From contig OZ076418.1 of NCBI GenBank assembly GCA_964187785.1, positions 27,094,001 through 27,158,000 of the forward strand: a stretch of DNA of 64,000 nucleotides. Reading direction: 5' to 3'. Positions 7,337-63,192 of this stretch are shown here, one piece after another. Each line of letters starts with the position of its first letter. Positions within the stretch are counted from its first letter, which is position 1. The translations under genes were made by a program, and so were the position numbers. The notes below the pieces were generated by a model that was not told the origin of the DNA, did no database searches, and worked only from the letters and a program-made list of their open reading frames with translations. This DNA is from Amphiscolops sp. MND2022. Lineage: Eukaryota.

Positions 7337-8151
7337 AGGAGTCGGAAAAAATTTTCGACTACTTATGCAATCGTGTTGTTTTTTTTGTTTTCTTTTCTCC
7401 CGACCTTTTCATGAAAATTTCAAATTTCTCAAAAACTGTCCATACGATTTTCACGAAATTTTGCACAGTCATTCTACACCCAAAGGGGCCCCTGCATGTG
7501 CAAAGGCATCAAAATCGTATGGCTGTGATGTGAGAAACATAGCCAAAATTAGCCCAAAAATGGCCAAAAAACAGCCATTTTTCGACTTTTTTCGATTTTC
7601 TCAAAAACTGTCCATACGATTCGAACGAAATTTTCTACAGTTATTCTACACCATATTAGAGTCCTATATGTGCAATGGCATCAAAATCGTATGGCTGGGA
7701 TGTGAGAAACATAGCCAAAATTAGCCCAAAAATGGCCAAAAACAGCCATTTTTCGACTTTTTTTGATTTTCTCAAAAACTGTCCATACGATTCGAACGAA
7801 TTTTTCTACAGATATTCTACACCATATTAGAGTCCTATATGTGCAATGGCATCAAAATCGTATGGCTGGGATGTGAGAAACATAGCCAAAATTAGCCCAA
7901 AAATGGCCAAAAAAACAGCCATTTTTCGACTTTTTTCGATTTTCTCAAAAACTGTCCATACGATTCGAACGAAATTTTTTACAGATATTCTACACCATAT
8001 TAGAGTCCTATATGTGCAATGGCATCAAAATCGTATGGCTGGGATGTGAGAAACATAGCCAAAATTAGCCCAAAAATGGTCAAAAAAGGCCCATTTTTCG
8101 ACTTCAGAAAAAAACTTAAGCCGACTCCTTTACCGCACATGCAGCTCTGGT
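7337..8151 (+). mobile_element. Non-autonomous Helentron/DINE-1-like element (family A) with ~4 internal 173-bp tandem units
   Basis: Subterminal inverted repeat AGGAGTCGG (7337) / CCGACTCCT (8121), 3' stem-loop, T-rich flanks; units recur at about 7431, 7603, 7776, 7949. Confidence 0.7.
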
Positions 8152-8423
8152 TTCTTATTTGTTCGAATCTTATAACTATAGCTAATAACAAATCAAAAAG
8201 CGATTGAAGCACAAAAAAGGTGAAGTAACCGTAACTGGAATAGCAAACGTTTTGCTAGCTAACGTGTAATAGGATTAAAGAGAACTAACATTTTCAAAGT
8301 TGATTGTGTAAAAACTGCCCAAAAGTCAGGCGTGGAGTCCTTGTGCTCCACTGCTCATCATAGTTCAAGGTTTTAGTAGTGTGGTTTGCTAGTTTGGAAA
8401 CCTTCATTCAACGCACAGCATTA

Positions 8424-8768: not shown

Positions 8769-8868
8769 ACTTATATCTCTACTTTTAAGATGAGTATTTA
8801 TGGCTGGCGGCTGGATGCAGGAATGGAGAGCAGTCAAGTCTTCGGAACATGGATCACAATCCTCAGAT
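8769..8868 (-). repeat. 3' LTR
   Basis: Base-for-base identical (by eye) to 22677-22776; preceded on the minus strand by a purine tract. Confidence 0.92.
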
Positions 8869-8870
8869 TA

Positions 8871-8885
8871 GTTCTCTCTTTTCTT
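8871..8885 (-). promoter_or_regulatory. Polypurine tract
   Basis: Minus strand AAGAAAAGAGAGAAC directly upstream of the 3' LTR. Confidence 0.8.
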
Positions 8886-9435
8886 ATTGAAAACACAACC
8901 ATGCAATTCTCTAGTTATTGTCAGCACTGATGTTTTTGTATTAATAAGTGTTATTATAATTATTTGTTTAAAGATGGTGATCAAATAGTTAAAAGGTTAA
9001 AGTTCTGTCATAGGTAAAATAGTGTTAAGGTCAAATATTTAAGAGTTCTTTCAATCAGTTCTTTTGTCCTCAACAACGGAATGTTTCAGCTATGTTACAC
9101 TTCCTCTCATCGAAAAACTTCCGGCGTCTGAAAAAGAGCCATCATACAGTCTGAGGAGTAGTGTAGTGATGATTAGAAGCTGAAATTGCCATGTTGAGTA
9201 GTCTACTTCCAATAATTCCATTGAAAGAGCCCAAAGAGAAGAGTTTTGGAGAGCAGCACAAGTCCCAGTTTCATGTTGTGATAAAGTTGTATATTTCATC
9301 CAGTCCAGTTGAATATTGTAGAGCCAAAGATTACTACATTTATAATTTACATATACTGCAGAAGAAAATATATGAAAGGATTTGTTTTGATCAATCTCAA
9401 TGATGAATGAATGATTTAACCGAAGGTTCGTGAAG

Positions 9436-11843
9436 TCAAGCAATGGTGTCGGCTTGGTCTGCTTCAAAGTCTCCGGTATCGGGAACCTTTTGGTTAATTG
9501 TAACTTGACAGTTACTTGGGTGTTTTTTGATTGATGATTGAAGATTTTTAATGGGATGGCATTGTTTGAATGCAGTCGTCTCGTATTCAAACATTGAACT
9601 GGCCATTCTGGGGTCTAGTGGACTTTGCATGAGCACTTGATCGCAATTAGCAGATGTAGATGGTTCGTTTAGATTTCTTTTCGATTGTGAACGTGAAAGA
9701 TGATATATTCGTCCAAATTTTTTGTGAAATTTATCCTCAGCATGAGAATCAGTTGTTTCCAATTTCATCATGGGTTTAGCTCGCACTCTTTTTTTGTTTT
9801 TATCAAGTAGGGATGGAAACAATTTCGATGCCAGATTGTAGCGATGATAAATGTACATAAAGATCAAGTGCAAAGCTGTCGATACAATGAACACAGTTAA
9901 TGTCAGCATGAATGAAATTCGGAACGGAACATATTGATTAAATTCTTTCGTTAAGGCTGGTTTCAAGAGTTTCATTTCTGATGCATATGGTCTGGCAATG
10001 TCGATCATGTGTTTGACTTCACGATTCTTTGGTCCTTTTGCTAACTGTAGCTTTACCTCCCTCAATAACTTCACTCCTGCTTCAGCTTTCGATGTGTAGA
10101 ACGGTAATTCGTCCAAAGGGGGGACTTCCATAACCAATGAAGCGATAGGATTAGGCAGAGAAACTTGCAATTTTATCGGTGGAATGTGAGCGCAACTTGA
10201 TAGATCAGATCGGATCTTGATGTTGTCAGTCATGATTTGCATTCCACATGCTAAAGTGATGAGACATATGCGGCATCCGCAAAAAGAAGAGCCCTGAACA
10301 GAGGAAGATGAAACTTCACGAAGGGTAACTGCGTGAGCGGATTGAATTAACCAAATGCCATAGCCTAAGTTTGTTGCTTGTTCTATGGCAGGCAGTTGTA
10401 CAATGGTAGTATCACATACTGCAAGAGCCTCCGATGCTGTACTGGAATACAAGGTGGCTAAACAAGACGAGTGTCCCATCTCTGTTGGAACAGACTCTGA
10501 ACAGATTCGGTAACGAGATGAGCCGAGACAATGCTCAAACTGTTCAGCAGAGAGGACAGATGACTCCATGTGATCCTCCGACAAAGCTAAATATGGAGCT
10601 TCGATGTTCCATGTAAGAGCCGACTGGGGATCGTCTGGATACGGCATCGGAATTAATTTTGCTTCATAGACAGTAAAAACGGTTTGCTTAGATGCTAGCG
10701 GGATGTTCAGGGTCATCAAAAGACCTTCATTAACCGTAATAGCATCTGCTAAGAGCTTGGAATCGAAGTAAGATAGCAGATCTGACATTGGGATAGCTAA
10801 AGACAGCCTATCCTCAGCCGTCGCCTGCTTCATTGCAACACTTCGTAGAATAGCCAATAACGATTCCGTTGGTACCAAAGACATAGGTAAATGACCTCTA
10901 AGTATAACCGGAATCGAATTTAAGATGTTCATGCGGAATGCAAATAAGGCCGCGCGATAGCTCTTAACACTTGCATGTATCATTGCTAGTAGCGAAGATA
11001 AGGTATCGAAATTGAAGTTTAGTTGTTGATTCGAAAAAAGCATTTGGTTGCAGTCGCGGAGTACATGAAAATTATGCTCAAAAACATCAAACTGTTGTTG
11101 AATAAGTGCCCAGTTTTTGTTCTGCGTATCAACAAGTTCCCTTTGGATGTCGTGAAGGGCCGCCAATTCATTTTCTACCATAAAAATTTTTTGTCCGTAG
11201 ATGTTGTAAATTCAGTTACATACTGGGTTAAAATGTCCTGGAAGTCTGATAGTTTGCGTATGTTCTCGGCATTTGCCTTCGCAGCGTCTTGACAGGAACC
11301 AAAAATGCCTTGTAGTCCACAAGAGTCGGAACTACCGAGAGCCACTCCTCCTCCAAAAAGGCCGACTGCAGCAAGAGCCGCTAGTCCCACTTGGGATCCA
11401 CGTCGGTGGCGAGTATTCCGCTGCTGTTGAGGAGGGGAGAGAAACATTGCTGTTTCATTACGTAGGAAGGCAACATCGAGTTCCGCAGTGTGGATTTCAG
11501 TTTCTATTTGTTGTAACATCCAGGTGACATTGAACGGCGTTGAATTTGTTGAAAAGTGACTTGAAAAGTCCAAGGGACAAAAAACAGATGGAAGTTCCCA
11601 CATCGACGCAAATTTGGCCATTAAGGCCACAATATCTGGTTTAAGTGCGAAGTCATAAGTCGGAAAGGGGACTAAAAATTCAGTTTTTATAAATTTCTCC
11701 GCGATCAAGATTTTACTGCGTTCATGGAACAGAACGCCCTTTTCTTGGATTTCGTTCGGGTTATTGGAGGCTTCTAAATTAGAAAGCCACTCACTTCGAA
11801 CTGAAGCAGGGGTGAAGAAAACCAGGAGGAACAAAACTAACAT
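9436..11843 (-). CDS. env: Envelope fusion glycoprotein, class I / baculovirus-F-like (~802 aa after correcting a 1-nt frameshift)
   Basis: Signal peptide MLVLFLLVFFTPASVRS; furin site RHRR (11400-11411) followed by fusion peptide GSQVGLAALAAVGLFGGGVALG; heptad-like helices; Cys-rich core; TM ISFMLTLTVFIVSTALHLIFMYIY; ~135-aa tail. The two ORFs join by adding one base to the run at 11182-11186 (DKKFFMVEN). Confidence 0.88.
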
Positions 11844-12222
11844 GGATCCGTTTTTCTTCGTGTTTTTCCCCCTTTTTTTATAATGGATAAAATCGAATAA
11901 TTTTCGAATGAATACTGTAGCAACTAGTTCGATCGATCTCAAATGCAAGAATGGCACTTTAGGTATTTTTGGGCGGGGTTTGTGGATATTTGAAAGATCA
12001 CAAGAAATGTGATTCCATTTGTTTTCAATATCCGGTGCCCTTTTGATGTTGACAAAATTCGAGTTGTGAAAGTTTGTTTTGACAAGTCATGTTTACGGTA
12101 CTAGTGATATTGGCGTTGTTTAGTTGCACGTAGGTAAGTAATGTGACATCCTGTATTTAAGTGGACATAGGACAGCAAAATGTCATCCAAGTCGAAAAAA
12201 GATTTTCGAGTATTTCAGCTAA

Positions 12223-12633
12223 ATGAAAGTCCTGTACTTGGTTTCGGCATTCTGCCTTTATGCCATTGTTGAAACATGTGTGCAAAGGGAGTGGCGAGGC
12301 CACAAAATACTGTGTTGTCCCAACGGGACTGCTATGGAAGTCTCGCCTGGTCAGAATGTCTGGGTGACACAAAAGACAAGTGTATGTGGCGCATCGAGCA
12401 TCGAAGAAAAACCTGACTCTAAATCGAAAAAAGTGATGAAATGGCTAATCGCCCTACTTGTATTAGGAATAGTTGCGTGCTGTTGCTGGCGGAAATTTCC
12501 TATCCAAAGAATTACTGCAATGATAACAAAATGTTGTCCAACCAAAGCTGACGTGGTCGAAAACCCAAAACTGGAAGTAAAAGTCATCAAAACTGAAGCA
12601 GTTGCGAAACTTCCACGCAGCCAGTCGTTTTAA
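12223..12633 (+). CDS. Small type-I membrane protein (136 aa), antisense accessory ORF
   Basis: ATG start; signal peptide MKVLYLVSAFCLYAIVETC; ~50-aa Cys-containing ectodomain; TM WLIALLVLGIVACCCW; basic cytoplasmic tail; possible leader intron GTAAGT 12134 to TTTCAG 12218. Confidence 0.7.
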   Translation: MKVLYLVSAFCLYAIVETCVQREWRGHKILCCPNGTAMEVSPGQNVWVTQKTSVCGASSIEEKPDSKSKKVMKWLIALLVLGIVACCCWRKFPIQRITAMITKCCPTKADVVENPKLEVKVIKTEAVAKLPRSQSF

Positions 12634-12805
12634 GTGACAAAAAACTAGGTTTTTGTTTTACGTTATGTGTGAGAATAATTTAGTTAGTGTGATAACTGAA
12701 CAATCTGAATTTGACAGCATACTTTTACGTTTACAGCATACGTTTACAGCATACTTTGAAACTTGAAAGGATTTAATGCTACTTGTTTTGATAAAAAACT
12801 TGGCT

Positions 12806-12814
12806 TATAAAAAG
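12806..12814 (+). promoter_or_regulatory. Possible TATA box for the antisense HHCC-OTU transcript
   Basis: TATAAAAAG upstream of the spliced gene; motif only. Confidence 0.3.
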
Positions 12815-13368
12815 ACCGGAGCCAAATCTGCTAGTTTACAAGAAAAAAAGTGGATATTATCAAGGTTAGAAGATTCAAGAGTTTAAATGAACAAAGAACA
12901 GAATGAATTGGTCATAAAAATTGATAGGCATTAAACAAAGCCATCCGCAGTTGGCGGAATTTGATGAAAGTCCGTAAGCCGCCAAATTTCGGGACAGGAA
13001 AATCCTGTCTTTGAAACAGAAGAACCAGCTCGATCCATTGAGGAGAACCGTAGGCAAGCTGTCGTAAGGTGCCATCTGATAGGATCAGCGAAATGCCCAT
13101 CGTTTCATCAGTTTGAATGCGTATAATTGGGAAAGCCGTGCCATTGTGGTACACTCCCAATTGTAGTGAAAGGCAAAAGCCATGTTTTGTAACATTACGT
13201 GAAAAGATCGAGTGGAAAGTAGGTAAAATGATGTGCCGAAGCTTAGCTTAAATTCAAAAGTAAAGAATCGAAAGAAAGAGACAAACTAGACAAAACGCTG
13301 TACAAGAAGAACTCGTCGATGAATGATATTGACTATTTTGTTTTGTCGGTAAACAGGAGTTAAATGTC

Positions 13369-14755
13369 ATGACAAAGGAACTTGAGTCAAGTGTAACTAA
13401 CGCAACATGTGTTTGTTTTAAATCTCGAGAATGCAGCGAAAAGATTCATTATGAATATTTGCTAGATAGAATGGAACGTACATTATACAATGCGATCTCT
13501 GAAATGAAAAGAAACAACGAAGTGAACAAATTAGTCTGCCAAACAAAGGGGCAAAAGGATTTATGGGGGAAACGGCTCAAGCGGTTCACTCTCAACGAAA
13601 TGGGGGCTTTATGCTGGAACGGTCAAAGGGTGCCAACAGTCGAAGAGTTAACCACTATCTTATGGCCTTTTCATGAAACTGAGAAAAGGCACATACAAGA
13701 CGAAGAATCATTGCGAAAAGTATTATCCGACAAAGGGTACGTTTTGCCAACATTCATTGGAGGTCTCGAACGGGCTGTAAAAACGTAAGTAAACGGATTA
13801 GAGAAAACAAAATTAGAAAAGACAATAACGAAGTAACCATTTTCATAGATTCCTGCACGATTGTCCAGAATGCTTCTGGACGCGACAAGAAGGCTATCGT
13901 TGGCAGAGAGCAACAAGTGTGGCTCGAAGGGAGCGACAAAAGGCCTGTGAAAAATTAGGTCTAGTCTGGCAAAAACTGACGGACGAGCCAGAAAATGGAG
14001 CAGTAATTGGGCTAGGTGAGCCGCCGATGGCAACTTGTAAATCGATTCTTGCCCAAGGTGGTGGAAAATGTTGGGCGTCAAGTGTATATTACTTGCTGAC
14101 GGGGAAAAAAAGTGGTAAGTGTATGATGGAAAACCATCATGACGACTGCAACTGGAAACGGAAAGCAAGAGAGTGATGGTGTTTCAGATAAAAAAAAGGA
14201 CAGCGCTGCATTGAAGCGGATCCGGGATACAATCGGGAACCACATGAAAACCCCTGAACTTCAGAAGTCAAGTGTAGAATGCCTGGAGTACGCTCCAAAT
14301 GAATTCGAACTCGATGCCGTGCTGCGGTCAAATGCCGACATCAGTGAGCCTTGGGTAAGACCAAATTATTCAACGAAAAGTTTAAACAGGAATTTCAGAA
14401 AAATGCACAGCTTTCAGATGTTAGGCACGGCCCAGGTATTAGGCTGGGACATGCTAGTCTTCTGGAGATACGCAAAAAGAAAGGGATGGATTCGCTATCC
14501 TGCAAAAGCGAGGAGTCCAGCACCAAGGGCCGCCTTTCTCTTCCATGTCATTCACTCAGAGAGAGAAAGAAAATTTCATTGTGAACCACTAGTTGAGTGG
14601 CCAATAGAAAGGTTAGTAGGGACGTAAGTGATAAATATAATTTAAAAAACATCGAAAATGATTGAAAAAGTATTTACAGCAACGACGTAACCTTTGATGG
14701 GAGTGGGGAGGCCGAAAAGTCGCCCTCTAAAAAGGCCCGAAAATACTGGGAGTAA
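13369..14755 (+). CDS. Four-exon antisense gene: integrase-type HHCC zinc domain fused to OTU-like cysteine protease (397 aa); exons 13369-13784, 13849-14114, 14188-14623, 14680-14755
   Basis: Three GTAAGT...YAG introns (64, 73, 56 nt) whose removal gives one continuous 1194-nt ORF. Intron 1 removal completes H-x5-H...AVKTFLHDCPEC. OTU-like motifs: ILAQGGGKCWASSVYYLLTG...IRDTIGNHM, MLGTAQVLGWDMLVF...WIRYP, FHCEPLV. C-terminal basic KSPSKKARK. Confidence 0.8.
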
Positions 14756-15220
14756 TCATTTCATCAAATGATCTCATTTCAAAATTCATAAAGAAATGCC
14801 CAACTCAGGAAATCTAAATCTTTGTCGATTAAAGTGGTTTTAAGCGAGTATAAGGCAAGCTTACCGCTGGCGGGCGGTTGTGAAACAAGTTTTATAGTGT
14901 TTTTTTTCTAGAAAAAACGTCGAATTGTGGAAATTATTGTAGGGAGACATGGAATCTCGAAGTGCGCCGTACGACCAGAAAAATTTTTTTTTGATTTGCA
15001 ATGCGACCAATGGGTGTGCCAATCGAAAGAGCGAGGCAAAAAAGGGCGGGACGCCGAAAATCCAAGTCTGCTGCGAAAATTTAACACTGAAAAAACTTCG
15101 GTTGAAAAGGTCGATTTTCATGTTTGTTGCGTTTTTGGTAATACGTTTAACGGAAAGAAGAGTAAAGAGCGACGTCTCGTGACTAAGAAGCGATTGCATG
15201 ACCCCAAGAAAGAGCGATCA

Positions 15221-15660
15221 TTAACGTGGGGGCTGAATGATTGTAATAGTAACCGGCGACTGTGAAAAAATACGATATAAGATTGAGAAAACAGTTGGCC
15301 AATGTAATCGGTCAAGACCGCTTCCGAGTCGCGGGATGCTAAGTGCCCGAATGTTATGGCGCTCTAAATGCTGACGAAGGGCCATCAAGCTCAACTGAAG
15401 CGTTTCGTATGTAGGTTTATGATAAAATCGTTGTTTGGTCACTAAATTGTGGATATAACGTTGATTTTTTTTTGTCAAAATAAGAGACCAATGAGCCTGA
15501 AGGTAAACTGTTTTTTGCATTGAATCCGAACTGACGGAGCTCTGGATAGCGGTATGCGATTGCGGAAGCAAGGCCGCGTTTCATTTGAAAATCGGCTGAA
15601 ACACAGTGAGCTATAGACTCTGTAGAGTCTAGGATATTCGAAGAAGAAAAGCAAAAGTTT
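15221..15660 (-). CDS. TARG1/OARD1-like macrodomain at the Pol C-terminus
   Basis: ESIAHCVSADFQMKRGLA ... HNLVTKQRFYHKPTYETLQLSL ... LSIPRLGSGLDRLHWPTV closely parallels the TARG1 pattern LAHCISED.MGAGIA...LITK.....KPTY..L..SL...MPRIGCGLDRLQW. Confidence 0.88.
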
Positions 15661-18600
15661 GGATGATTGTCGGAAGAAATAGAATTTAAAACATTGGATG
15701 CGGACAGTCTTTTCTTCAAATTACGGAAATTGTAGCGTGCTTTTACTTCCGTTTGGTGCTGGAGATACGCCTGAGGAGATTGCGGTGTCAGCTGGTGCGT
15801 TGGAGATTGTTGTACCCGTGGGCTTTGACTAGAATGAGGCCGAGTGCGTTGACAAGATTCAAGTAAGATCGTGCGCTTATCTGCTTTTGGTAAGCTTGTG
15901 CCTGGGACCTGAGTCAACTGTGTTCTATGTGGAGGTTGTCCGTAAGTTTTTGGTCCACGTCCAATAAAGACTGGTACTGTTTCACGATTCTCATCGAAAT
16001 TCAAAGTGCGATTAGTGCGAGATGAGGTAGTCGGAAGTTTCGGACGGACGGTACGTGATGCTTGCTCGGCCGGGGTGGGTGTAAATGCACCTGCGTGGCG
16101 TGCCTGGTCATCATCTGAAGTCGCTGGTGGAGAGGACGGAGAATCTGTGGATTCATCGTCAAGATATGGCACAAGCGCTGGTTGTTGTTCTTCGTCATGG
16201 GCTGGCAGTGCGGGAATTGCTGGAGCTGCTGCTGCAGCTGGTAGGGGTGGAACTGCTGGCCCTGGAGCTGGTCCCATCGGGATAACAGCTGGTGCAATAG
16301 GAAAACTAAGCGAAACCGTAACCGGTGGAGGCTTTTCTTCGTTGTGAGCGACACTAGTTTCCTCTGAGGGAGGTAATAGAAGAGTTGGAATGCTTTCATC
16401 GAAAATAGCTGGTTCTCCACGGAATCGCCCGAGCATAGGGTCGCGTTGAAATTTATCCGGGTCAATTTGCGGTAACTCGTCAACTTGATATTGCGGTACA
16501 ACCGGTCGGAGACGAATGCGATGTACGCATTGAGTGTAGTTTGTACCTACCTTGCGAATTATGTAATTTGAATTTGTTAAAACTTGCTCGACGCGATACA
16601 ATGGTAGCCAGATAGGAAGGAACTTACTGGAAAAATCAGACTGCGTCATTAGTTTTGGATTCAAAAGAAGACAAAACGAGATATGTTTTAGAGGTTGCGC
16701 TTCAGCTTTGTAATCATAATATGCGCGGTATCTATTATACATTTCAGTCAATTTACTTTTCGATTCGGAAAATTTTTGTAGCATGGCATCCTGCAATGCA
16801 AGCACATATTCCGTAGTCGGTTGCGCACGTTCAAGCGAAGTGTTATTAAACCTGAGATCCAATGGTTTCAAAGGTTCACGACCGTGGAACAATGCGGTCG
16901 GGCATGTCCCTATTGCAAAATGATAAGAAGTATTATGAATAAATGCAGCAAGTTGCACGTATTTGTACCAGTCATTCCACTGCTCTGTGGTGTTCAACTT
17001 CAGAATTCGTTTGAGGGCGCTATGCGAGCGCTCCACACTACCTACCGTTTGAGGGTGTTTTAGACTGGCATGTTCCAATTTTATTTCCAAAAGTTTAGTC
17101 AATTCGTGCATCAATTCACTCACAAAAGTAGTACCCAAGTCGGATAAAATCGTTTTTGGAAGATAACTATGACGGAAAAATATCGACGCAAGTTCTCGTG
17201 CAACAGTTTCGGATCTCCCATTAGGAAGTGGGACTGCAAAAAGATATTTTGTAAAAACATCAATACCCGTAAGAACATAACGGTAGAGCGGAGACTGTAA
17301 CCGACCGACAAGGTCAATTTGTAACATTTCGACCGGGTAAGATTTCAACGAGGAGACCGGTTGCAACGAAGTTTTCAGATTTTTGCTTGGTACACGTTTC
17401 AGTTGCAAGCATTGTAGACAGTTTTGGATAGTTGACGTTAAGTATTCTGTAAAATTCGGAAAATAAAAGCGTTTTCTAAATTCTTCAACCGTCTTTTGAT
17501 TCCCATATGGCCTGCTGTCGGCGAGTTATGCAAGCGGTAAATTACTTCGCGCCAAAGGGATTTCGGAACGCAGTACTGTTTGTGTTGAACCTTTCCTTGG
17601 TCGTCATAAAAAAGTCGGTAGAGGACATTTTCGTCGATTATGAGACGTGGAAATTGTTTCCGATACTTTGGTAAAGCGATCGGTAAATTTGGCGACATGT
17701 CCGGTGAACCTCGGTCTTTCCATTGCATTACCTCACGAATGGTCTGGTCTTGATTTTGTACTAGAGCGAGGTCTATTGGCTCTGACCGGTTGGGCAAATC
17801 ATCAAGAATGTCGCTGAATTCTTCTGACGAGACTAAGTTTATTTGATTTATTTGACAGAAAGAGTAAAAGCCAGTGATGTCAAGAGACGGGGTAGTCTGC
17901 GCTTCGGTTGTTTTCTGTAAAAACTGTTCGTAGAGACCAAATTCTTTCAATTGTGAAATTAGGCGTTCGTCAGCCTGATCGTCAACAGATTCCGGAAAAG
18001 GTGATCTATCCAAAATATTTGATAAAGCGACATCAGGAGATTTCGCTTCGGTTGCTATTTCGATATCTTTAATAGGTATACGATCAGTTAATTTGAGAGA
18101 CAGGGTTAGAGTAGGGTCTGTTTGCATTCGTGATAAAAAATCTGCGGCCGAATTCGCTTTACCAGGAATATGAGCAAGGAGAATGTTGAAAGACAAAACT
18201 CTATCCAAACAGTTCCATAACGATGGATGAATACTTTTAGATTGGAAAAATTGCGTGAGACTACGGTTATCGGTTAAGACTAGCACAGGTTTAGTTGCGC
18301 CCCATATAAAATGTGCAAAATGATATAAGGCGAAATAGAGAGCAAGAAATCCTTTATAGTAAACCGAAAATTTCAATTGCGTGGGACCAAACAATCGAGA
18401 TCCAAAGGAGACCGGCGCGTATACTTTTTTCTCTTTTCCTTGTTGATCTAACAAGTAGTCCTCAATCATGAGGACAAAGCCTGTGCCATGGTAACTAGCT
18501 TCACAAAGGAGTACGTATTGGAGACCAGGTTTTGCCAATCGCAAAGTAGAGTTGGTAGCATTTCGTAAATCAGTTTTTAATACATCTAGTGCTTCGCTAT

Positions 18601-20728
18601 GTTCTTTCGTGGTTTTAAATTCTACATCTTTTCGCAAAAGTTTGTAAAATGGTAGCAATTTTTGACCCAAATTGGGCATAAATGAACGGAAAAATTGGAC
18701 AAATCCAATCAATCTCTTCACTTGTTTAACTGTTTCTGGCTTCCTGATTTTTTCAAGGAATTTGTTTATTTTGTCTGCTTCAGGTGAGATGCCTTTAGGA
18801 GTTATAGTGCTTCCCAAATAATCAATTTTGGTTGTCCCAAATTCGCAATTGTGAGCAGACAATTTTAATCCCGATGCTCGCAGGCAATCAAATATTTTCG
18901 TTAAAGCGGGAATCATTTCATCAAAGTTGTTTACTCCCCTGGCAATGTCGTCCATGAATTGAGTACAAACATTGGCAGCAAGACATTTATCTAGATAATG
19001 TTTGACGAACGAACTAAATCCAGTGACGGATTTGTTCAGGCCTTGGGCTAAACAATTATAGGCAAATGTACGTGAAGCGAAATTAAATGGCAGCAATTGT
19101 ACCGAAAGGTCATCCGCCATTTGAACGCAATGGTATGCTTGCGAACAATCAAGTTTACAAAATAGCTTCTTCCCCGCAAAATGGTTTGTCGCATCGGTCA
19201 TATTTGAAATCGGGAAATTGCTATTTAAGTAATCATGGCGTAGGAGGTGGTTGACTCTTCTGAGATCGATAAGTATGCGAAGCTTGCCAGATGGTTTGCG
19301 ATGTACAAATATCGGACTAGAATATTTGGAATGTGACAACGTAGTTATGATGTTAAAATATTGTAATAACGCCAATTCAACTAAGATTTCGTCACGCAAA
19401 TGAATCGGTGCTGGTGGACCTTGAACGTATACCGGAAGTTGATGAGCAGGCGTTAATTTGATCTTCAATTCTGTATTATACCCAACATCGAAGCGATGTT
19501 TTGCAAACACGTCATGATATTCAACAAGAAAGTCCTCCAATTTTGATTTTTCATCAGCGCTCAAAACACATGTATCCCACGTAAATTTTTGCAAAAATTC
19601 TCGTCTATCGTGTGAATTAGATTTTGGATTTATTTTTTCAAAACGTTGAAGTTGCAAAATTTGGTCGTAAATTTCGCGTTGCAACGGTGACAAATTTGAA
19701 AGATCTGTACATGTTTCGGGAGTCGGAAACCAAAGTTTTGAGTAATTTGGGGGCGGTCGACCATTGTCAGTGTCAATTTTTTGAAAGTGTATATCTTGAA
19801 TTAGCTGATTGAGTTCATTTTCAAAATCGTCAGGTTTTCTCATTTTTGCGAGTGCCAATAATTGTGGATCTATTTCAAGGAGATAATCAGCTTGTGACTC
19901 GCTCAAAATTTCGAAATGTGCAATTTGTTTTTTGCTATTTAGCGTAATCTGGGAATCGGACAAATTGATCGCTGATATGTATATTTTATTGTCATTATCC
20001 ATCTTGCTCAGAGACGAAGTTAATGCAATATTGGCTTTTTCCTCCAGATTCTTGTTTGGAATGACTAGTCCTGTGTAATTAGCGAACTGGTCAGTATATT
20101 CATCTAAATAGCATTCAAGGAGGACTTGTTGCTGCGGTCCAATATTGACTTTTTTGCCCAATAGGATAGGTATATTTTTCATTTTTTTCACAAATTGGCG
20201 TTTTTTTCCAGCGTCCGGTTTCATTTCATTGAGTTGAACCGTAAAGTCGGGCAGTTTCAGTAAATTGTTTTTGGGGTCTATCGTGATATTCTGTTTTTTA
20301 AAGAAAGAGTTTCCCAAAATTACACTATTCATTTTTGGTAGTACAAGGAAACTGTCTGTAAATGAATGAATTCCAATACAGAATGTGAGATTCACCTGAT
20401 TATCAACTAACACTCGTTGTCCTGAAGCCATACGGACAGACGTAAAGTTTGGAGTTTCATTTTTAATTAAGTCGGGATGACTCAAACGTAATTCGTTGTA
20501 TAAATTTTGAGGCATTACATTAGCGCAGGCGCCTGTATCAATGAGGGCTCTCCGGCGAATGTTCGGAGAAAATTTCAATTTAACGTAGGAAAGATTTTCA
20601 CCTTCAAGAGGCAAAACAGCGCATATATCTGGCTCTTTTAATTCTATGTTACATGTGTGTGGCTCATTAGACTGGTTTTCATGTAGAGAATTAGGCGGTG
20701 GAGTCTTGTGCTGCGTTTTTAGTTTTTT
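15221..20728 (-). CDS. pol: Pol polyprotein PR-RT-RNaseH-integrase-Pro-rich linker-macrodomain (~1835 aa; two compensating homopolymer frameshifts)
   Basis: PR ALIDTGA; RT YSSPIFVHRKPSGKLRILIDLRRVN, KLDCSQAY, QFMDD; RH LCEAS..TDNRSL..HIPGKANSAADFLSR; IN HNSPTAGH..CLQC, QIDLVG, SDLG, VERSH. Apparent frameshifts at 17494-17497 and 15465-15473. Confidence 0.95.
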
Positions 20729-21973
20729 GGATTTTGATTGAACGGCATTTGAGCTCCTCGTTGTGGCGGGTTACCTTGCGCAGTACAATCTTTTGCTAGA
20801 TGATTCGGATATCCGCAATTATAGCAAGTATGTGTTGATTGTTGTGTATAAGGCATGTAATGCGGGTCCGGAGTAAAACTTCAAATGTAGTTTGCGATGA
20901 ACCTTGATTGGAATTTCCTTGTTGAAAGTTTTCCTGATTATGATTTGACCATTGTTGCTGACTATTTTGATTCTGATTAAAATTTGAATTTTGGTAATTT
21001 TGATTTGACTGATTGTAATTTCTGCCGTAATTGTTCTGCCAAGGTCGTCCTCGACCTTGGTAACCTCGACCTCGGTTTCCACGGTTATTGCCGCGATACC
21101 GACCACGATAATTTCCTCGATTTCCGCGATAGCCTTTTGAGAGCCGCGTTGCGAATTGTTTTGGTTTTGCTGATTTTGTAACTGAGTGGTAAAATTCGTA
21201 GCTTGCTCTTCTAGTTTTTTGGACATTTCGTTCAGTCGATTGTCCATAGTTTCTTGACTATGGCTCAATTTTGTAAGAGCTGTAACTAAAGTATCAGATA
21301 CTGAAGGGCGCACTTCACTGAAGGCATCCATAACCGAATCTTCAACCTTACAAAGGTTATAGATCGAAAGTTGTTTCCGAGCGAATATACACAAATCTTC
21401 AACCGTTGTATTTTCCGGTTGTTCCAAAAGTTTCGTTCGAAGCCAGCCCGGCATATTTTTTATAAATTGACTCCGAATCTGAGTGGAGCGCGCTTGTTGC
21501 GCTGAATGAATTATTTCGGCTCTTCTGGCGGTTTCAGAATCAAATCGTGTTTGTTCGACTGCTGCGTCCGGCGCGGCACCGTCAATTGGTGCTACTGCGG
21601 GTGGATTTGGGTCGGGATAAGCTTTAAGTGCTTTCGTTTGTAACGTGACTAAAAAATTCTCTGGATTGTCTGTTTTGGGATCGAATTTTAAGTTTTCCAA
21701 TTTAAGAACATGCAATTCCTGAAGTCTTGGATTACAAAAGTGATCACGAAGAGCTGTCAAGGAGTGGTCTAAGTCCGCACGTGTTGCTACCGGTAGTGTT
21801 TGAAAATAGCGGAGCGCAGCGTCTCTAAGATGAAGTTGTAAAAAGTTGGCCTGTTGCGCCTGCGGTACCGCAGCTACTGCTAAGATACTTCGTAACAAAT
21901 GTTCAAATTCACGAAAGTTTTCCTTTTCTAAACCCGAGTACGGTGTTAGCGAGAGTTGAGGTAAAGCAGCCAT
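20719..21973 (-). CDS. gag: Gag (~418 aa after correcting two 1-nt frameshifts) with RG/NQ-rich region and CCHC zinc knuckle
   Basis: ATG 21973 MAALPQLSLTPYSG..; capsid-like region; RGYRGNRG repeats in the shifted frame; CYNCGYPNHLAKDC at ~20785-20826; stop at 20719-20721. Confidence 0.88.
20722..20728 (-). promoter_or_regulatory. -1 programmed ribosomal frameshift heptamer A AAA AAC (gag to pol)
   Basis: Gag ends CCA AAA AAC TAA; the -1 frame is open directly into the protease. Confidence 0.75.
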
Positions 21974-22662
21974 GATTTTAAAGTTAAGTGTAAAATAGAG
22001 AGTGACGAATAAACAAACTAAGATTGTAGTGAAGAAAAAATTAAAAATTTGTCGATTAAAGTTTGTAAAATGCAGTCGAACACTGATGTGTAGTTTGTAC
22101 TTCGAAAACTGAACAACGAATATGATACTTTCAAGTCGAAACAAGAAAGATTTGAGATCAAATTTATAGCGTTTTTGCAACAATTACAATTTGCAGTGAA
22201 AGGAGGAAATTTGCAAGTGGAAAAAAGTAAAAAGTTTGCAGAAATTCACAGTTGAGTTTCAAAAAGAGTAACAGCTGTGAGACACAGTTCAGTTGAAAAT
22301 GATAACATTTTAAGCACTCATGAAATTCGAAATCCACACTATATCACTTTAATGCTTCAGAATTGAATCAAACTCACCGACTGTATTCGTACTGGCACTT
22401 TGAAGTCTTCATGAAATTGAATACAGATATCGTAGCATCAAAGTTCGCCCAATTTGAGAAAGTCACCAAAAGTCATCGTTGATTGCTGTAGTTTCCAGTT
22501 TCTGCCGTGCCTTGTTTGTTTCAGTTATTACAGCCTCGTGGATCTGGTGCTGGTCGTGGATGATGTGACTGGAACACCGCGGGTGGTTGGTCGGGGGTCT
22601 CGTGTGAGCTTTTCAACACAAAAGGGAGAGTTCTTCTCTGTATTGCATAGTGAGGATTGTTT

Positions 22663-22676
22663 CGCTCCTGTCACCA
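22663..22676 (-). promoter_or_regulatory. Primer binding site, probably tRNA-Leu
   Basis: TGGTGACAGGAGCG immediately after the 5' LTR; resembles the Leu-type PBS TGGTGTCAGGAG. Confidence 0.75.
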
Positions 22677-22776
22677 ACTTATATCTCTACTTTTAAGATG
22701 AGTATTTATGGCTGGCGGCTGGATGCAGGAATGGAGAGCAGTCAAGTCTTCGGAACATGGATCACAATCCTCAGAT
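22677..22776 (-). repeat. 5' LTR
   Basis: Identical to 8769-8868; followed by the PBS. Confidence 0.92.
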
Positions 22777-31749: not shown

Positions 31750-34700
31750 GTTAGTCGAGTCCATCCTTTCAAATTTCAAGTAACATAAGAGCTCCATTAT
31801 CATTTCCGCCCATATAAAATGGGGGAGAAAAATCATGATGTGTGTTGCGTTTTTTTACAAAGTCTGCCAAAACTCCATCCTCGTGACGAGTGGATCTCCA
31901 TCCACTTGACTATTTAGTTACTTAACTATTTTTTTTATAGCGGAATATATCCCGGTGCTTAGCGGGCGTCTTGTTTGAAACTGCTCGTCATTTTTTTCAC
32001 TCTCTACATTCATAATTAAATGGAAAGGGTGGATTCACAACTGCCATAAGTGCAACTAATTGAAACATTAGTTTCACGGATAATGTTTATCAACGCAAAC
32101 GAATCTGAACGGCTAAGGACTTTCATTGTGTTTGGTAAAGTTACTTGACAACTACGAATAGTCACTTCCTTTATCGGTAAACTTGCCTGTTAGCTACTGC
32201 GGTATTGACTGAAATCTCAAATGTTGACCTGAAAACTGCAAAGCGCCCCGGAAGGAGCAAACCTTATTCATACTTTCGTTTATGCTGTGAGAATCTTGAA
32301 GTTTCGACGATGGAACTAATTTTAACTTCGAATGTTTTTACGCTTTCATTCATCTCATTTAGGTGCTTGCGGACAAATTGCAATGCTTGGAGCCGGAAGG
32401 AGCCAATTACCCTTCTTTAGCCAGCCACCTTCTACAGTCTGCTTTCATTCGACACAATGCAAAGGATGTGAAAGTATTGGTTGCATGTTGCCTCGCTGAT
32501 GTTTTACGTCTCAGTGCCCCCAATAACTGCGTCGACTCTGACAACGATCTGAAGGTTTGAATATCAAACGTTTTTAAGTTTTTAATTTTTAGGAGTCGGA
32601 AAAAATTTTCGACTACTTATGCAATCGTGTTGTTTTTTTTTCTCCCGACCTTTTCATGAAAAATTCAAATTTCTCAAAAACTGTCCATACGATTTTTATA
32701 AAATTTTGCACAGTCATTCTACACCCAAAGGGGCCCCTGCGTGCGCAATGGCATCAAAATCGTATGATTGGGTTGTGAGAAACATAGCCAAAATTAGCCC
32801 AAAAATGGCCGAAAAACAGCCATTTTTCGACTTTTTTCGATTTTCTCAAAAACTGTCCATACGATTCGAACAAAATTTTCTACAGTTATTCTACACCATA
32901 TTAGAGTCCTATATGTGCAATGGCATCAAAATCGTATGGCTGGGATGTGAGAAACATAGCCAAAATTAGCCCAAAAATGGCTAAAAAACAGCCATTTTTC
33001 CACTTTTTTCGATTTTCTCAGAAACTGCCCATACGATTCGAACGAAATTTTCTACAGTTGTTCTACACCATATTAGAGTCCTATATGTGCAATGGTATCA
33101 AAATCGTATGGATGGAATGTGAGAAACATAGCCAAAATTAGCTCAAAAATGGCCAAAAAACCGCCATTTTTCGACTTTTTTCGATTTTCTCAAAAACTGT
33201 CCATATGATTCGAACGAAATTTTCTACAGTTATTCTACACCATATTAGAGTCCTATATGTGCGATGGCATCAAAATCGTATGGCTGGGATGTGAGAAACA
33301 TAGCCAAAGTTAGCCCAAAAATGGTAAAAAAAGGCCATTTTTCGACTTCAGAAGGAAAAAGACCTAAGCCGACTCCTTTACCGCACATGCGGCTCTGGTT
33401 TCACTTGCTTTTCATCTGATATTATTGAAATCTCAAAATGTCTACTTTTTTTCAGTACAATTCTTCGCACGATACTGAATAATTCAGATATTTGTTCGGC
33501 AGTGACTGCAAGCGTGAGAATTAAATTTCTCAAGCTGCCGACGACATTTCAATACTCGTGCGATGGAACGAGCGAGTGGTAATTATGCATTCGTACGCTG
33601 ACGTCATTGAGATGAAGCGAATGAGTGTTAATTATTCGTTCTCGGAGAGCTTTGCCTGCATGCAAATGCGAAACTTTGTCTACGCTTAGTAGTTTTATTT
33701 TCTTTAGTCCGAGGAGAATTCAAGGAGGTGTAAACTTGTACAGTGATTAATTGTGCGCTAAACGATGATTAAACAGTGATATCAACGCCTCGACAGTCCG
33801 AAAAACAGCCATGGTAACGCAAGGTAGCCACGGACCATCCGGCGTCGACGCCAACGACTGGCGCAGGTGGCTTTCACATTTCGGTCAACCATCCTGGAAC
33901 CTCTGCAAGGCTCTTGCGGCATTTGCCCGGAGACTCGCAACAGATCAAATGCATGATCTAACTCCCTACAACGCATGTCGTCTCATACCGCTTGACAAAA
34001 ACCCAGGTGTCAGACCAATCGGAGTGGGCAAAGTCATCAGACGCATAATTGGGAGGAACATTCTTCGATGCATCGGGAACGATCTCAAGATCTTGGGCCA
34101 GAATAGGCAACTCTGCCTTGGTCAAAAATGTGGCATCGAACACGCCATTCACAGTCTACGTGAGACGTTCGAGCTGCCAGAGACAGAAGGGCTTCTCCTG
34201 ATTGACGCCAAAAACGCGTTCAATAGTCTAAATAGGGATCTGGCCCTGAAAAATATACAGAAAACCTGTCCATCCATCATAACAGCGCTCCGAAACTCAT
34301 ATGGTTTACCTTCAAACCTTTACGTGAATGGGAAAACTCTCTTGTCGCAAGAAGGAACTACTCAAGGCGACCCTTTGGCTATGTCCATGTATGGCATTGC
34401 GCTTCTACCGTTAATGGACTTCGTGAACGAAGAAGGAGTGCTTCAAAAATGGTATGCTGACGATGGCAATGTAGCCGGTAGCATCGAATCGCTCCGAAAT
34501 CTCTTCGAAAAACTGAAGCTCCACGGTCCCGCATTTGGATACAACATCACTAAATGTCATCTCATCACGAAAGATTCCTCCATTGACAAAGCAAAAGAAC
34601 TCTTTAAAGACGAGGATGTTGAACTAGTGGGAGGACACCGTGTACTGGGGTCCGTTATTGGATCGTCCGAGGCCTGTCACGCTTTCCAGTCCTCCAAACT

Positions 34701-37700
34701 CACTGAGTACACGAACATTGTAAACAAACTTGCGTCACATGCGAAAAAGTCACCACAGAATGTCTATCATGCATTTACAAAAGGTGTTCAACACAAACTC
34801 ACCTTCCTTTCAAGAACAACACCTGACATGGAAAACACACTGCAAAACACCGAATCTCTCTTAACGACGAAACTGATCCCTAACATCACCGGCCGTGGTC
34901 AGTTATCTATAGCATAACGTTCTCTTTTCTCCCTACCGCTCAGCAAAGGTGGGCTGAATATCCTTTCACCCGAAGACAGAAGAAACGATCTGCAGTGGTC
35001 AAAGGATGTTACTTCTCATCTAGATGAAGAGGATTTAACCACCGCTGAAGCGAAGCAACACTCAACAGTAAACATGATAAAGAAACAGAAGCAAGAAATT
35101 CAAAAAACTAAGCTTGAAGAAGTCAAATGCAACTTGAATGACGAATAACGACACGCAGTTACACTTGTTTCGGAAGAAGGAGCATCCAGCTGGCTAGCAG
35201 CCCTCCCACTGAAACGCTATGGTTTCACTCTTACGGAGTCTGAATTTCGGGACGGTCTTGCGCTGCGCTACGGTTGGGAGCCAAAGAACTTACCTGCAAA
35301 ATGCCCATGTGGTGAACCCTTCACTGTTGCCCATTCCCTACACTGCGGAAAAGGAGGCTACACTCACATGAGACATGACGAAATACGCGATACGTTCGCA
35401 AAGATAATGAAAGACGTTTGCTTCGACGTCGAGGTGGAGCCGAAACTTCAGAGGTTAGAAGGGGAATCCTTCGAATATAAATCAACTTGCACTGAAGATG
35501 AAGCTCGTCTCGATATCAGAGCAAATGGACTCTGGGATTCACGATTCTCGAGAACGTATTTTGACGTCAATATTTTTAACCCGCTGGCCAAGTCCTGTCC
35601 GAAAGAAGTAAAGGAAGCGTATAAATATCATGAAACTTTGAAAAGACTGATGTACGAACAGAGAATCCTTGATGTGGAAAACAGCTCATTCAATCCTCTT
35701 GTCTTCGCGTGTTCAGGAGGCGCAGGTCCTTCAGCCTCGAAAGTTATTTCCCGACTTGCTCTGAAGATCAGCGAAAAAGGACATGACAGCTACTCGGACG
35801 CCATAGGATACAGCAGGACGCAAATTAGCTTCGCTTTGCTACGCAGTTCCGTGCTATGCCTCAGAGGATCTCGATCTACTCGCCGTCAAACTGAGGAATC
35901 ATCTATCTCTGCAATGGTTGAAGAGGGAAGGTTGTCGTGACTTACCTCGACGATCCTAATCTGGTGATTCCTGCGATATATTTACAGCCGATGTTTTTTA
36001 AAATTATGATACGATGCCCTAATCTATAAATCTCTCCTCCACTTGATGTTCTTGGTGCTTGTTTCATTCAGGGGACCGTTTTTGACACTGTATGGAGGCT
36101 CTGCAGCTTGCAGTGATCTGGCACCTTGCCTATCTTTTTCTGACTGCCCATGCTTCAACTCGGGCTAATTCCATTTCATAAAGACCTTTTTAAAATGGTT
36201 CCAGTTCGCACGGTCCTTATTTTAATATTTTATTAAACAGTGTATTGGTATTCCAGATATGATTCTATTATTTAAACAAACACTGAATTATACCTTTATT
36301 AAAAACAAAATCATCTTGGTTTTAAAAACAAAGCAGTGTAATATTAATGAAGGATTAAAGCAGAAATAGTACTGTGCCCCGGAGAGGCCTATTTGTATGA
36401 ATGAGAGTCTTGAAATCAATTTTTTCTTTTGAAAGTCACTGAGGTAGCATCCTTTGTTAGGGAAGGGGCGGTGTCTTTTTGGTACGAAATACGATTTGGA
36501 AAAGCTTCAGTCTTGAAGGCCTTTGATAGATGATAAAAACCGTATTTCGCCTGATTTCTCTAAAATGAAAGTTTCAAAAAATGCTAAAATCGCTTCAAGA
36601 AAAGAATTGTATGTGTTATTAACAATATTCGCCCCATATTCAGTGATTGAACTACCATGCAAAATTTAACAAGCCGGGAACGGCCCAAGTCGGCGCCATA
36701 TCCAAGGCTCAAAAATAGCAAAAGGAATTGAAAGTATCAAGTATCCTCTTCTAAAGTACCCGCATGAGGAAAAAATTGAAAAAAAAACGTTTTTCAAAAT
36801 TTTTTTGGTCCGGTAAGTCGCATAGCGCCGAAAAATGTAAAAGGGGACCTCAAAAAAGCTTAATTAACCTCTATCTCAAGTGCCAGTAGAAGTAGTGTGG
36901 CATTTAGTGTTAGTTCAAGTCAGCTTATAAAGCTTATAAAATCTGTCACTTCGTTGGTCTTAAAAAAAAGTCACTGCTATAGTCTGCGTTTTTCTACGAA
37001 AAGCGCCGACTAAAAATTGGCAAAATCATATCTTGGACATTTAACAAACATGTATCAAAAACTGGTGAAAGCTAACAACATAGCCATATAGAGAATCTCT
37101 GTTGAACACGCCATTCACAGTCTACGTGAGACGTTCGAGCTGCCAGAGACAGAAGGGCTTCTCCTGATTGACGCCAAAAACGCGTTCAATGGTCTAAATA
37201 GGGATCTGGCCCTGAAAAATATACAGAAAACCTGTCCATCCATCATAACAGCGCTCCGAAACTCATATGGTTTACCTTCAAACCTTTACGTGAATGGGAA
37301 AACTCTCTTGTCGCAAGAAGGAACTACTCAAGGCGACCCTTTGGCTATGTCCATGTATGGCATTGCGCTTCTACCGTTAATGGACTTCGTGAACGAAGAA
37401 GGAGTGCTTCAAAAATGGTATGCTGACGATGGCAATGTAGCCGGTAGCATCGAATCGCTCCGAAATCTCTTCGAAAAACTGAAGCTCCACGGTCCCGCAT
37501 TTGGATACAACATCACTAAATGTCATCTCATCACGAAAGATTCCTCCATTGACAAAGCAAAAGAACTCTTTAAAGACGAGGATGTTGAACTAGTGGGAGG
37601 ACACCGTGTACTGGGGTCCGTTATTGGATCGTCCGAGGCCTGTCACGCTTTCCAGTCCTCCAAACTCACTGAGTACACGAACATTGTAAACAAACTTGCG

Positions 37701-62160: not shown

Positions 62161-62845
62161 ATGGCGAGCGGGTTTTCCGAAGACGACTTACTCGATGCCG
62201 AGTTGATGGAGGCTTTTTCATGTTACGATGACGATGACGTCACTGACGATTCTTCTATCTTAGCCAATCAGAACCGCGAAAACTTACCGCCTAATCTGAG
62301 CAATATAAACAGTCAGCTTTCTTCGGCCTTTGAAAAGAGTCGTCCAAAAACTTCTGAAAAACCAGTGACATCTGAATCTAGTTCAAAAAACACTATCACA
62401 GAAACTGGCAAAGGTGATGAATTATCTGAAAATCTGAAGCTGTTGAAATCGCTGGATGAAAAACGAAGCCGAGTTCTTGAAAATTTAAAAAAGAGCGGAA
62501 TGGCAATTGGAACTACAAGTTCTTCAGACTTTAGTGGTCCGAAATATTTTGACAATCAGTCTGGATTCACAATAGGAAACCCGATAATATCGAAAGAAGA
62601 GCTGAACAAAAAAATGGAAGGCAAGAAAAACTTCAGACTTTCGACGTTGAAAGACAAAATGCGAATGCATACTCTTTCAGAGGTCAATTTTGTTGTGTTC
62701 GGGGTTGTTTCCAGACGATACGAGCCCAAAAATGCTGTAAATGGCAAGAAGTTCTGTTCTTTTCTGTTGTCGGATTTGGAACATACCAGTTTGAGACTTT
62801 CAGTTTTTCACGAAGACTACAAAAACTTGTACAAGGAGGGTGAAG
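62161..62845 (+). CDS. MCM10: MCM10 first coding exon (N-terminus and start of OB-fold)
   Basis: SGFTIGNPIISKEELNKKMEGKKNFRLS..FVVFGVV..NGKKFCSFLLSDL matches the MCM10 internal domain; donor G|GTTTGA. Confidence 0.85.
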
Positions 62846-63192
62846 GTTTGAATGCCATTAACTAATTAACTATTGACAATTTTCATTTCCTAAAAGAATT
62901 TTTCGAGGAAAGTGGAAATTACTCATTCGTTTGGTTAAAAAATAGCAGAACTTATAGCATTTGTGACATTAATAGTTTGTCAGAAGATCATGATGTTTTA
63001 TGTAATATTTTCAGTGTTATCGTTATATGCTTTTCGGAGTTCATCATTTAGTTTTTATGGAGTTTTTTTTCAAAATGTTGAAACTGTTGTATATTGAAAC
63101 GCGCATTAAAAGGGGTGGGTTCTTATGCTAAAGTAAACTTGAAATCTACAGATTTACTAAAAATGTACTTGTTAGTTCAAGATATTTTAGTA

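Follow-up and report, generated by a model that had tools for sequence, protein, structure and literature searches.

What would a long terminal repeat (LTR) retroelement gain from a spliced gene, antisense to its own genome and placed between pol and env, that joins an integrase-like zinc finger to an OTU-like protease domain? The question is raised by a 64,000-nucleotide stretch of DNA from Amphiscolops sp. MND2022 (contig OZ076418.1 of assembly GCA_964187785.1, forward-strand positions 27,094,001 to 27,158,000), here called the window, in whose coordinates positions are given. One element in the window carries this gene, the HHCC-OTU gene, together with a small membrane-protein gene and, at the end of Pol, a macrodomain. 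A sequence-only reading of the window had placed all three parts between pol and env, and this is confirmed by a match of the macrodomain to TARG1, by profile and fold comparison of the OTU-like gene and by conservation of the membrane-protein reading frame. Our comparison of related copies indicates that the HHCC-OTU gene is a real gene of a whole LTR family, and its simplest reading is as a Ginger1-type transposase that has lost its DDE core.

Results

A spliced antisense gene shared by the family

The HHCC-OTU gene encodes a protein of 318 amino acids (aa) whose exons are listed in Table 1. Relatives of the element were collected by a DNA search with the region, which returned at least 77 matches from the 40 scored of 107 candidates, and 36 sibling loci, most of them chosen by the macrodomain alone, were analysed. 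Exons A, B and D are present in 34 of the 36 macrodomain-anchored loci, so the cassette is not a one-off nested insertion, an outcome that the sequence-only reading had named as damaging to it. The three introns are constant in position and phase among the sibling loci. The donor GT is kept in 34/35, 32/32 and 32/32 cases and the acceptor AG in 35/35, 31/32 and 32/32 (introns 1 to 3), while the intron interiors, 55-105 nucleotides (nt) long, are unrelated between siblings. Of the 35 modelled loci, 20, that of the window included, keep a spliced frame open over 270 aa or more.

Sixteen copies were aligned, leaving out four loci with a shifted splice choice or a short frame (L011, L013, L017 and L018) and the 15 loci without an open model. 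Identity in this alignment ranges from 44 to 99%, with 81 invariant columns. H68, H74, C110, C113, C179 and E305 are invariant in 16/16 copies and H303 is kept in 15/16, being replaced in L028; at the level of alignment positions, C179, H303 and E305 fill the places of a Cys-His-Asp/Asn/Glu triad. The purifying selection that had been expected of the cassette is borne out by hand counts: over the 88 codons of exon B there are 12 synonymous and 2 nonsynonymous changes between the window and L015, and about 18 and 12 between L037 and L038, while the membrane-protein gene gives 9 and 7 between L024 and L040. Judged by these comparisons of copies, the HHCC-OTU gene is real, family-wide and under purifying selection.

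Homolog searches with the gene retrieved 5 and 4 unnamed proteins, and scans of viral and metagenome contigs yielded no relative. Elsewhere in the genome, one homolog of exons A, B and D lacks the candidate catalytic Cys (L128:4375-5580, oriented; G000:C6:23845102-23855101); no integrase or env lies in the 10 kb examined around it, and it is possibly a solo or host-adopted copy. An open reading frame (ORF) at 14912-15265 was considered as a further gene and dropped, its protein not being conserved in most alleles.

The C-terminal half resembles an OTU protease

Residues 150-314 match a profile of 11 OTU domains from the same genome with a probability of 96.4 (E 1.4e-9), compared with 0.08 for the reversed control and 7.5 for the best of 20 column shuffles. 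When a model of the fragment exon C-intron-exon D (predicted local distance difference test, pLDDT, 63.6) was used for a fold search, the top 12 rows were all OTU domains, with Z of 4.7-6.6 and a root-mean-square deviation of 4-5 Å over 99-116 aligned residues. Neither exon C-D nor the exon profiles had a significant match when searched against the sequences of solved structures. The profile comparison and the modelled fold together assign an OTU-like fold to the domain, and it is likely, as a prediction, that it is a deubiquitinase.

A second LTR family and a proposed Ginger1-like origin

A Pfam OTU search of the genome exposed a second LTR family that carries an antisense HHCC-OTU ORF just after pol (loci L052-L055, L058 and L070-L089, e.g. 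G000:C1:86421565-86425545). This ORF is intronless, encodes about 295 aa and has 131 genome matches; 20 loci were retrieved, and the layout was seen in 16/16 of those inspected. The integrase of the second family, which from its motifs we take to be Bel/Pao-type, is 23-27% like Gypsy-family integrases; neither a macrodomain nor an env turned up in the parts of this family that were examined. The window gene is collinear with this ORF, its two halves giving profile probabilities of 47 and 83 against less than 1 for reversed controls, and an independent alignment gives an equal register. One Bel/Pao-type copy (L070) exceeds the Pfam OTU cut-off (27.5 bits) and retains GDGNC. A model of the Bel/Pao-type protein matches integrase N-termini (foamy virus Z 6.1, Ty3 Z 5.9, murine leukaemia virus Z 4.7) as well as OTU domains (Z up to 5.9), nairovirus OTUs being among the fold matches; Foldseek with this model returned no significant match. 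At one locus (L078) a fragment of Gypsy-family env adjoins the Bel/Pao-type HHCC-OTU gene, a nesting which means that the two LTR families meet physically. The same genome search found OTU domains within ORFs of 2200-2800 aa at L050, L056, L057 and L064, which are probably Helitron-type.

The Bel/Pao-type profile collected 251 proteins at E≤0.001, of which 38 were scanned for domains. Among these 38, three (P0041, P0063 and P0104) have H2C2, rve and OTU, which is the Ginger1 layout, and two (P0028 and P0061) reach the cut-off for H2C2 and OTU but lack rve, the OTU of P0028 scoring 31.9 bits. Five unnamed DDE-less proteins of 286-318 aa align with an invariant His, CxxC, Cys and His, and the His is kept in 9/9 members of the wider DDE-less family. 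The best match of P0028 in the present genome is only 29% identical, and P0028 therefore comes from another genome. Exon A of the window matches the profile of the DDE-less H2C2-OTU family with a probability of 94.

Ginger1 transposases combine a YPYY stretch, an H2C2 finger, a DDE core and a GPY/F motif with an OTU or Ulp1 domain, and have 0-4 introns (Bao et al. 2010, PMC2836005). An N-terminal YPYY-like stretch with H2C2 and a C-terminal OTU are clear in the Bel/Pao-type family and its database relatives. The DDE core and the GPY/F motif are absent from the window gene, where about 65 residues lie between the CxxC and the OTU Cys, and Pfam scans of the HHCC-OTU fragments and of the DDE-less proteins found no match to rve. 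On the simplest reading, then, the HHCC-OTU gene would descend from a Ginger1-type transposase that lost its DDE core, and would not be a Ginger1 element itself. Direct comparisons with Ginger1 are weak (see Discussion), and the link is therefore transitive, by way of the Bel/Pao-type family. An origin by duplication of the N-terminus of the element's own integrase was also considered, and no similarity was found in a single-sequence comparison, which is insensitive.

A TARG1-class macrodomain ends Pol

The C-terminal half of the window macrodomain (15221-15580, minus strand) matches human TARG1/OARD1 at E 1.6e-19. In the sibling L037 a single frame runs uninterrupted through integrase, linker and macrodomain, and its match to TARG1 is at E 1.3e-22, the next-best macrodomain standing at 9e-8. 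A Lys and an Asp that align with the catalytic pair of TARG1, presumably K84 and D125, are retained in the window copy, in L037 and in the divergent L123. A homolog search with integrase plus macrodomain retrieved 9 unnamed proteins. By its best similarity and its Lys/Asp pair the macrodomain is assigned to the TARG1 class, and the predicted activity is removal of ADP-ribose. Viral macrodomains are MacroD-type.

Diverged cassettes on near-identical backbones

All 20 siblings compared resemble the window closely in the C-terminal part of env (91-99% identity) and in the LTR (92-99%), and 18/20 do so in the reverse transcriptase (RT; 93-99%), a region that the other two lack. The macrodomain follows the backbone at 80-99%. 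Exon A stands at 55-77% DNA identity in 15/20 siblings, where 54-60% is the noise floor of the aligner (the missing regions of L023 and L040 score alike) and reads as saturated; the protein homology of the cassette alleles is clear although their DNA is saturated. These identities show many deeply diverged cassette alleles on near-identical gag-RT-env-LTR backbones.

Exon A has 145 genome matches. Of twenty divergent loci retrieved, 19 share the layout, with integrase and/or env in place, and a macrodomain match and a match to the membrane-protein gene were each obtained in 16. L129, whose integrase is at 54% identity, has an unbroken Pol in which no macrodomain was detected, and it keeps both antisense genes. 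Since L129 and the Bel/Pao-type family have the OTU gene with no macrodomain seen, the two parts are separable, and they are therefore not one two-enzyme kit. A kit of this sort, like that of RNA viruses, had been proposed in the sequence-only reading: both of its parts are present, but they occur apart and change at different rates, the OTU is transposon-like and the macrodomain TARG1-class.

The membrane protein has a signal peptide, a short Cys-rich ectodomain, a membrane helix with a Cys cluster and a conserved tail ending in SQSF. Its gene is conserved in 10/10 aligned copies, with C19, C31, C32, G35, T36 and C55 invariant; identity is 36-50% for 8 alleles and 15% in L129, and insertions and deletions come in multiples of three. 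A fourth, optional ORF is nearly identical in L024, L035, L037 and L040, although three of these (L024, L035 and L037) carry OTU alleles with no more than 58-61% likeness to one another; read from these identities, the optional ORF may swap independently of the rest of the cassette. Neither the membrane protein nor the optional ORF matched a family in Pfam or Atlas. At L013, L020, L031, L034 and L113, parts of the cassette and of env are deleted internally or duplicated in tandem.

The element and the rest of the window

The order of Pol domains, protease-RT-RNase H-integrase, with a Gypsy-type RNase H and an H2C2/rve integrase in Pfam, assigns the element to an env-bearing, Ty3/Gypsy (Metaviridae)-type class. 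As regards features of Odin, lokiretroviruses or Retroviridae, just one Gypsy-type RNase H was detected in the Pfam scans, and no search was aimed at the tether domain. The gag-like gene has no Pfam gag match. A weak dUTPase-like match between protease and RT (about 19900-20150, minus strand; E 0.0065) is under the cut-off. The env-like protein has a signal peptide, a furin-like RxRR site, a hydrophobic stretch and a C-terminal membrane anchor; it matches no family in Pfam or PDB searches, and it may resemble class I fusion proteins. The env of the sibling L037 is a single frame of 805 aa. The window copy itself is broken, with gag, pol, macrodomain and env each spread over two frames.

The sequence-only reading had taken the LTR to be 100 bp long, which has to be corrected: the true LTR is about 331 bp, and of the 5' copy the window retains the final 100 bp, which match the end of the 3' copy exactly. 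Full pairs of about 331 bp occur in 18/20 siblings, and their within-pair identity of 97.6-100% means that the family moved recently. Most siblings have 5-bp target duplications (by eye), which fits the 4-6 bp expected for Ty3/Gypsy. The termini of the window copy and its siblings are TGT...AGT, not the usual TG...CA, which holds for most but not all LTR elements (PMC12440569). The Troyka elements, with CG...CG termini, a 3-bp target duplication and no env (PMC12440569), were considered and are ruled out by the TGT...AGT ends, the 5-bp duplications and the env. We read the window element as a damaged member of an env-bearing LTR family of Gypsy type that was recently active and hands down an accessory cassette.

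Table 1. The LTR element of the window and its parts (window coordinates)
Feature	Position	Strand	Description
LTR element	8769-22776	minus	contains the whole cassette under study
3' LTR	8769..9099	minus	331 bp; TGT start, AGT end; purine-rich tract just upstream
env-like gene	9436..12086	minus	two frames in the window copy, frameshift near 11200
Type I membrane-protein gene	12223..12633	plus	antisense, 136 aa
Optional fourth ORF	12912..13247	minus	sense strand; restricted to some cassette alleles; the window copy has a one-base gap
HHCC-OTU gene	13471-14627	plus	four exons, 318 aa; antisense to the element, between pol and env
Exon A	13471..13784	plus	N-terminal extension like that of integrases, and both zinc-finger His
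GT-AG intron 1	13785-13848	plus	HHCC-OTU gene
Exon B	13849..14114	plus	zinc-finger CxxC, linker, candidate catalytic Cys179 (GGGKC)
GT-AG intron 2	14115-14187	plus	HHCC-OTU gene
Exon C	14188..14354	plus	helical part of the OTU-like domain
GT-AG intron 3	14355-14417	plus	HHCC-OTU gene
Exon D	14418..14627	plus	strands, candidate catalytic His303/Glu305 (FHCEP), stop codon
TARG1-class macrodomain (predicted)	15221..15690	minus	end of Pol; frameshift-split near 15465-15480 in the window copy
pol	15417..20770	minus	protease, weak dUTPase-like stretch, RT, Gypsy-type RNase H, integrase (H2C2, core), Pro/Ser-rich linker (Pfam); frameshift near 17440-17525 in the window copy
gag-like gene	20796..21973	minus	frameshifted; label from position
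5' LTR remnant	22677..22776	minus	last 100 bp; primer-binding-site-like TGG stretch directly after

Elsewhere in the window, a 172-bp repeat forms two arrays (7382-8200 and 32627-33353). A non-LTR RT element, tandemly duplicated with a period of 2966, lies at 33769-38906 and a broken non-LTR RT ORF at 45574-47614, both of which we take from motifs to be such. Long host-like ORFs at 52248-56923 and 62158-62865 presumably resemble PDS5 and MCM10.

Discussion

Our best explanation of the locus as a whole, to which we give a probability of about 0.45, is a swappable counter-defence cassette with a Ginger1-derived protease and an integrase-fused macrodomain. After loss of the DDE core, the HHCC-OTU gene would retain an integrase N-terminal module and an OTU protease. 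Being antisense, it would be read from integrated DNA by a promoter of its own, for which antisense promoters in Gypsy elements provide a precedent (PMC7264820), and its introns would survive reverse transcription because the gene is antisense to the genomic RNA. The N-terminal module may tether the protease to element DNA or to integration complexes, where the OTU could strip ubiquitin, or a modifier resembling it, that the host attaches so as to degrade or silence the element. The macrodomain, fused to the integrase, could clear the integration complex of ADP-ribose. Cassettes would be exchanged by template switching when genomes are packaged together, and an allele may gain an advantage in the conflict with the host while it is rare, as is suggested by the many old alleles that sit on young backbones. 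Targeting, substrate and selective cause are all proposals here. Counter-defence was already the role suggested in the sequence-only reading; it is our best guess too, and a reasonable inference that the hypervariability strengthens.

Several results weigh against this explanation. An open spliced frame is missing from 15 of the 35 modelled loci. In the Pfam scans, which covered exons and fragments of the Gypsy-family gene rather than the whole spliced protein, none reaches OTU (PF02338) or H2C2, and the macrodomain scores 13.3-13.7 bits with Pfam Macro, under the cut-off of 22. The profile check proposed earlier on this DNA is accordingly divided: H2C2, OTU and Macro fall below the Pfam cut-off, but the OTU is supported by profile and fold and the macrodomain by its TARG1 match. 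The Z values of the OTU fold are middling, Foldseek found no match to PDB or viral models at E≤0.001, and the Bel/Pao-type model, which is poorly modelled at that point, folds the last strands as helix. Where OTU proteases canonically have GDGNC, the gene has GGGKC, and another sequence stands in place of the usual W-G motif. As to origin, the match of exon A to a single Ginger1-type protein falls short of significance (probability 0.4), exons C-D reach a probability of 36 only, and no intact Ginger1 donor was confirmed in this genome by a search that was swamped by Gypsy integrases, the OTU-only query giving 16 matches. Cassette swapping and diversifying selection are suggested by identity tables alone. 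Finally, host deubiquitinases and ubiquitin factors can promote LTR integration and the activity of Tf1, Ty1 and Ty3 (PMC5741268), and hence defence is not the sole reading; this fits a housekeeping role.

Such a role could be that of a replication cofactor: the OTU and the macrodomain would adjust signalling by ubiquitin and ADP-ribose while the integration gap is repaired, or stabilise the integrase, and the alleles would represent old neutral divergence, preserved by a failure of diverged cassettes to recombine internally. The macrodomain is indeed fused to the integrase and conserved like the backbone, the hand counts point to purifying and not to positive selection, the OTU and Ulp1 domains of Ginger1 have been proposed to act in transposition and repair (PMC2836005), and TARG1 has been linked to DNA repair (PMC4695847). 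A cofactor does not account for the persistence of many alleles when backbones and LTRs are 85-99% identical, nor for the membrane-protein gene and the optional ORF, and we regard it as unlikely, though worth serious weight. Alternatively, the cassette could be directed at other elements, the membrane protein blocking the entry or fusion of related particles, the core-less integrase module poisoning rival complexes and the alleles marking self and non-self. An allele-diverse type I membrane protein does adjoin env, and an integrase N-terminal module without its core may be a natural dominant-negative design. Across alleles, however, env is 85-99% identical, which gives an allele-specific exclusion few differences to act on, and in the Bel/Pao-type family the OTU gene occurs where neither macrodomain nor env was seen in the stretches examined; competition between elements therefore seems to us distinctly improbable.

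The OTU-like domain may be real and selected without being a deubiquitinase, acting as a protease with another substrate or as a binding module. Because its motifs are atypical, ubiquitin may not be the substrate; GGGKC and EPW differ from the usual pattern and lie below Pfam detection, the His is replaced in L028 and the stand-alone L128 is without the Cys. The Cys is nonetheless present in 16/16 copies, the His in 9/9 members of the wider family and GDGNC in the Bel/Pao-type L070, and a domain of this different kind is, in our estimate, improbable to about the same degree as competition between elements. That the gene is a neutral passenger, a nested transposon remnant carried by chance, might be suggested by its Ginger1-like layout and its introns, which point to an origin by DNA insertion (PMC2836005). 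This is largely refuted and very improbable, given splice sites that are conserved while the introns are saturated, 81 invariant columns in 16 copies, an excess of synonymous changes, presence across lineages down to 54% integrase identity and the parallel case in another superfamily.

Each ingredient of the cassette has a precedent, and OTU domains are known in Ginger1 and Helitron transposons (PMC2836005). With Ginger1 itself the HHCC-OTU gene shares the YPYY-like stretch, the H2C2 finger, the C-terminal OTU and GT-AG introns, but it has no DDE core or GPY/F, is about 300 aa long compared with 500-800 in Ginger1, and is a fixed antisense gene inside LTR elements. Imagin, a domesticated crustacean Ginger1 gene, is likewise multi-exon and keeps YPYY and H2C2 with no DDE activity; unlike the present case, it is a single-copy host gene whose integrase core fold is mostly kept, OTU is not mentioned in the available part of its description (PMC12863088), and the taker here is a mobile element. 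Macrodomain ORFs occur in epsilon-like endogenous retroviruses of fish (PMC4977317, a review citing Basta et al. 2009), which are also env-bearing LTR retroelements; here the element is Gypsy-type, and the macrodomain appears to be TARG1-class, fused to the integrase end and placed beside an OTU cassette. Plant and fungal Gypsy elements (Grande gene23, RIRE2, Retand and Boty) also have conserved ORFs that run antisense between pol and the 3' LTR, in some cases from a promoter of their own; the origin of these ORFs is described as unknown, with no clear database similarity (PMC7264820). The gene described here differs in being spliced, enzyme-like and traceable in layout, and the available text of that paper never uses the word intron. 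Env-bearing invertebrate LTR elements with internal promoters are also known (PMC4402516).

Nairovirus OTUs and the macrodomains of corona- and alphaviruses reverse host marks. The present proteins share the OTU fold, the macrodomain fold and possibly the reversal of host marks with them, but their sequence affinity is to transposon OTUs and to TARG1, they are encoded by separate genes on opposite strands that occur apart, and their function is predicted. In the literature we found no OTU gene in Gypsy or Bel/Pao elements, nor the present combination of parts; Repbase and most subscription journals and supplements lay outside this search, and a prior annotation is possible. The arrangement is not described in the available parts of PMC4695847 and of bioRxiv 10.1101/2021.11.30.470311. 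Our strongest new points are the DDE-less Ginger1-like gene in two LTR superfamilies and the multi-allelic cassette.

Why transposons repeatedly capture deubiquitinases is a question that has stood since the Ginger1 paper. An OTU that has apparently been separated from its transposase core, persists in two LTR superfamilies and exists as many natural alleles makes the specificity of substrate and allele directly testable. If the targets are silencing or degradation factors, a layer of host defence would be exposed, together with a virus-like evolution of accessory genes in endogenous elements. More tentatively, and as a possibility that we hold to be doubtful, the two LTR superfamilies might share an as yet undescribed class of accessory gene, for a DDE-less, Ginger1-derived deubiquitinase that is tethered by its integrase module and directed against host silencing or degradation, the cassette of the env-bearing family being multi-allelic, swapped and under frequency-dependent selection like the accessory regions of exogenous viruses. 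Were this true, it would suggest that the host has a ubiquitin-based, allele-specific defence against retroelements.

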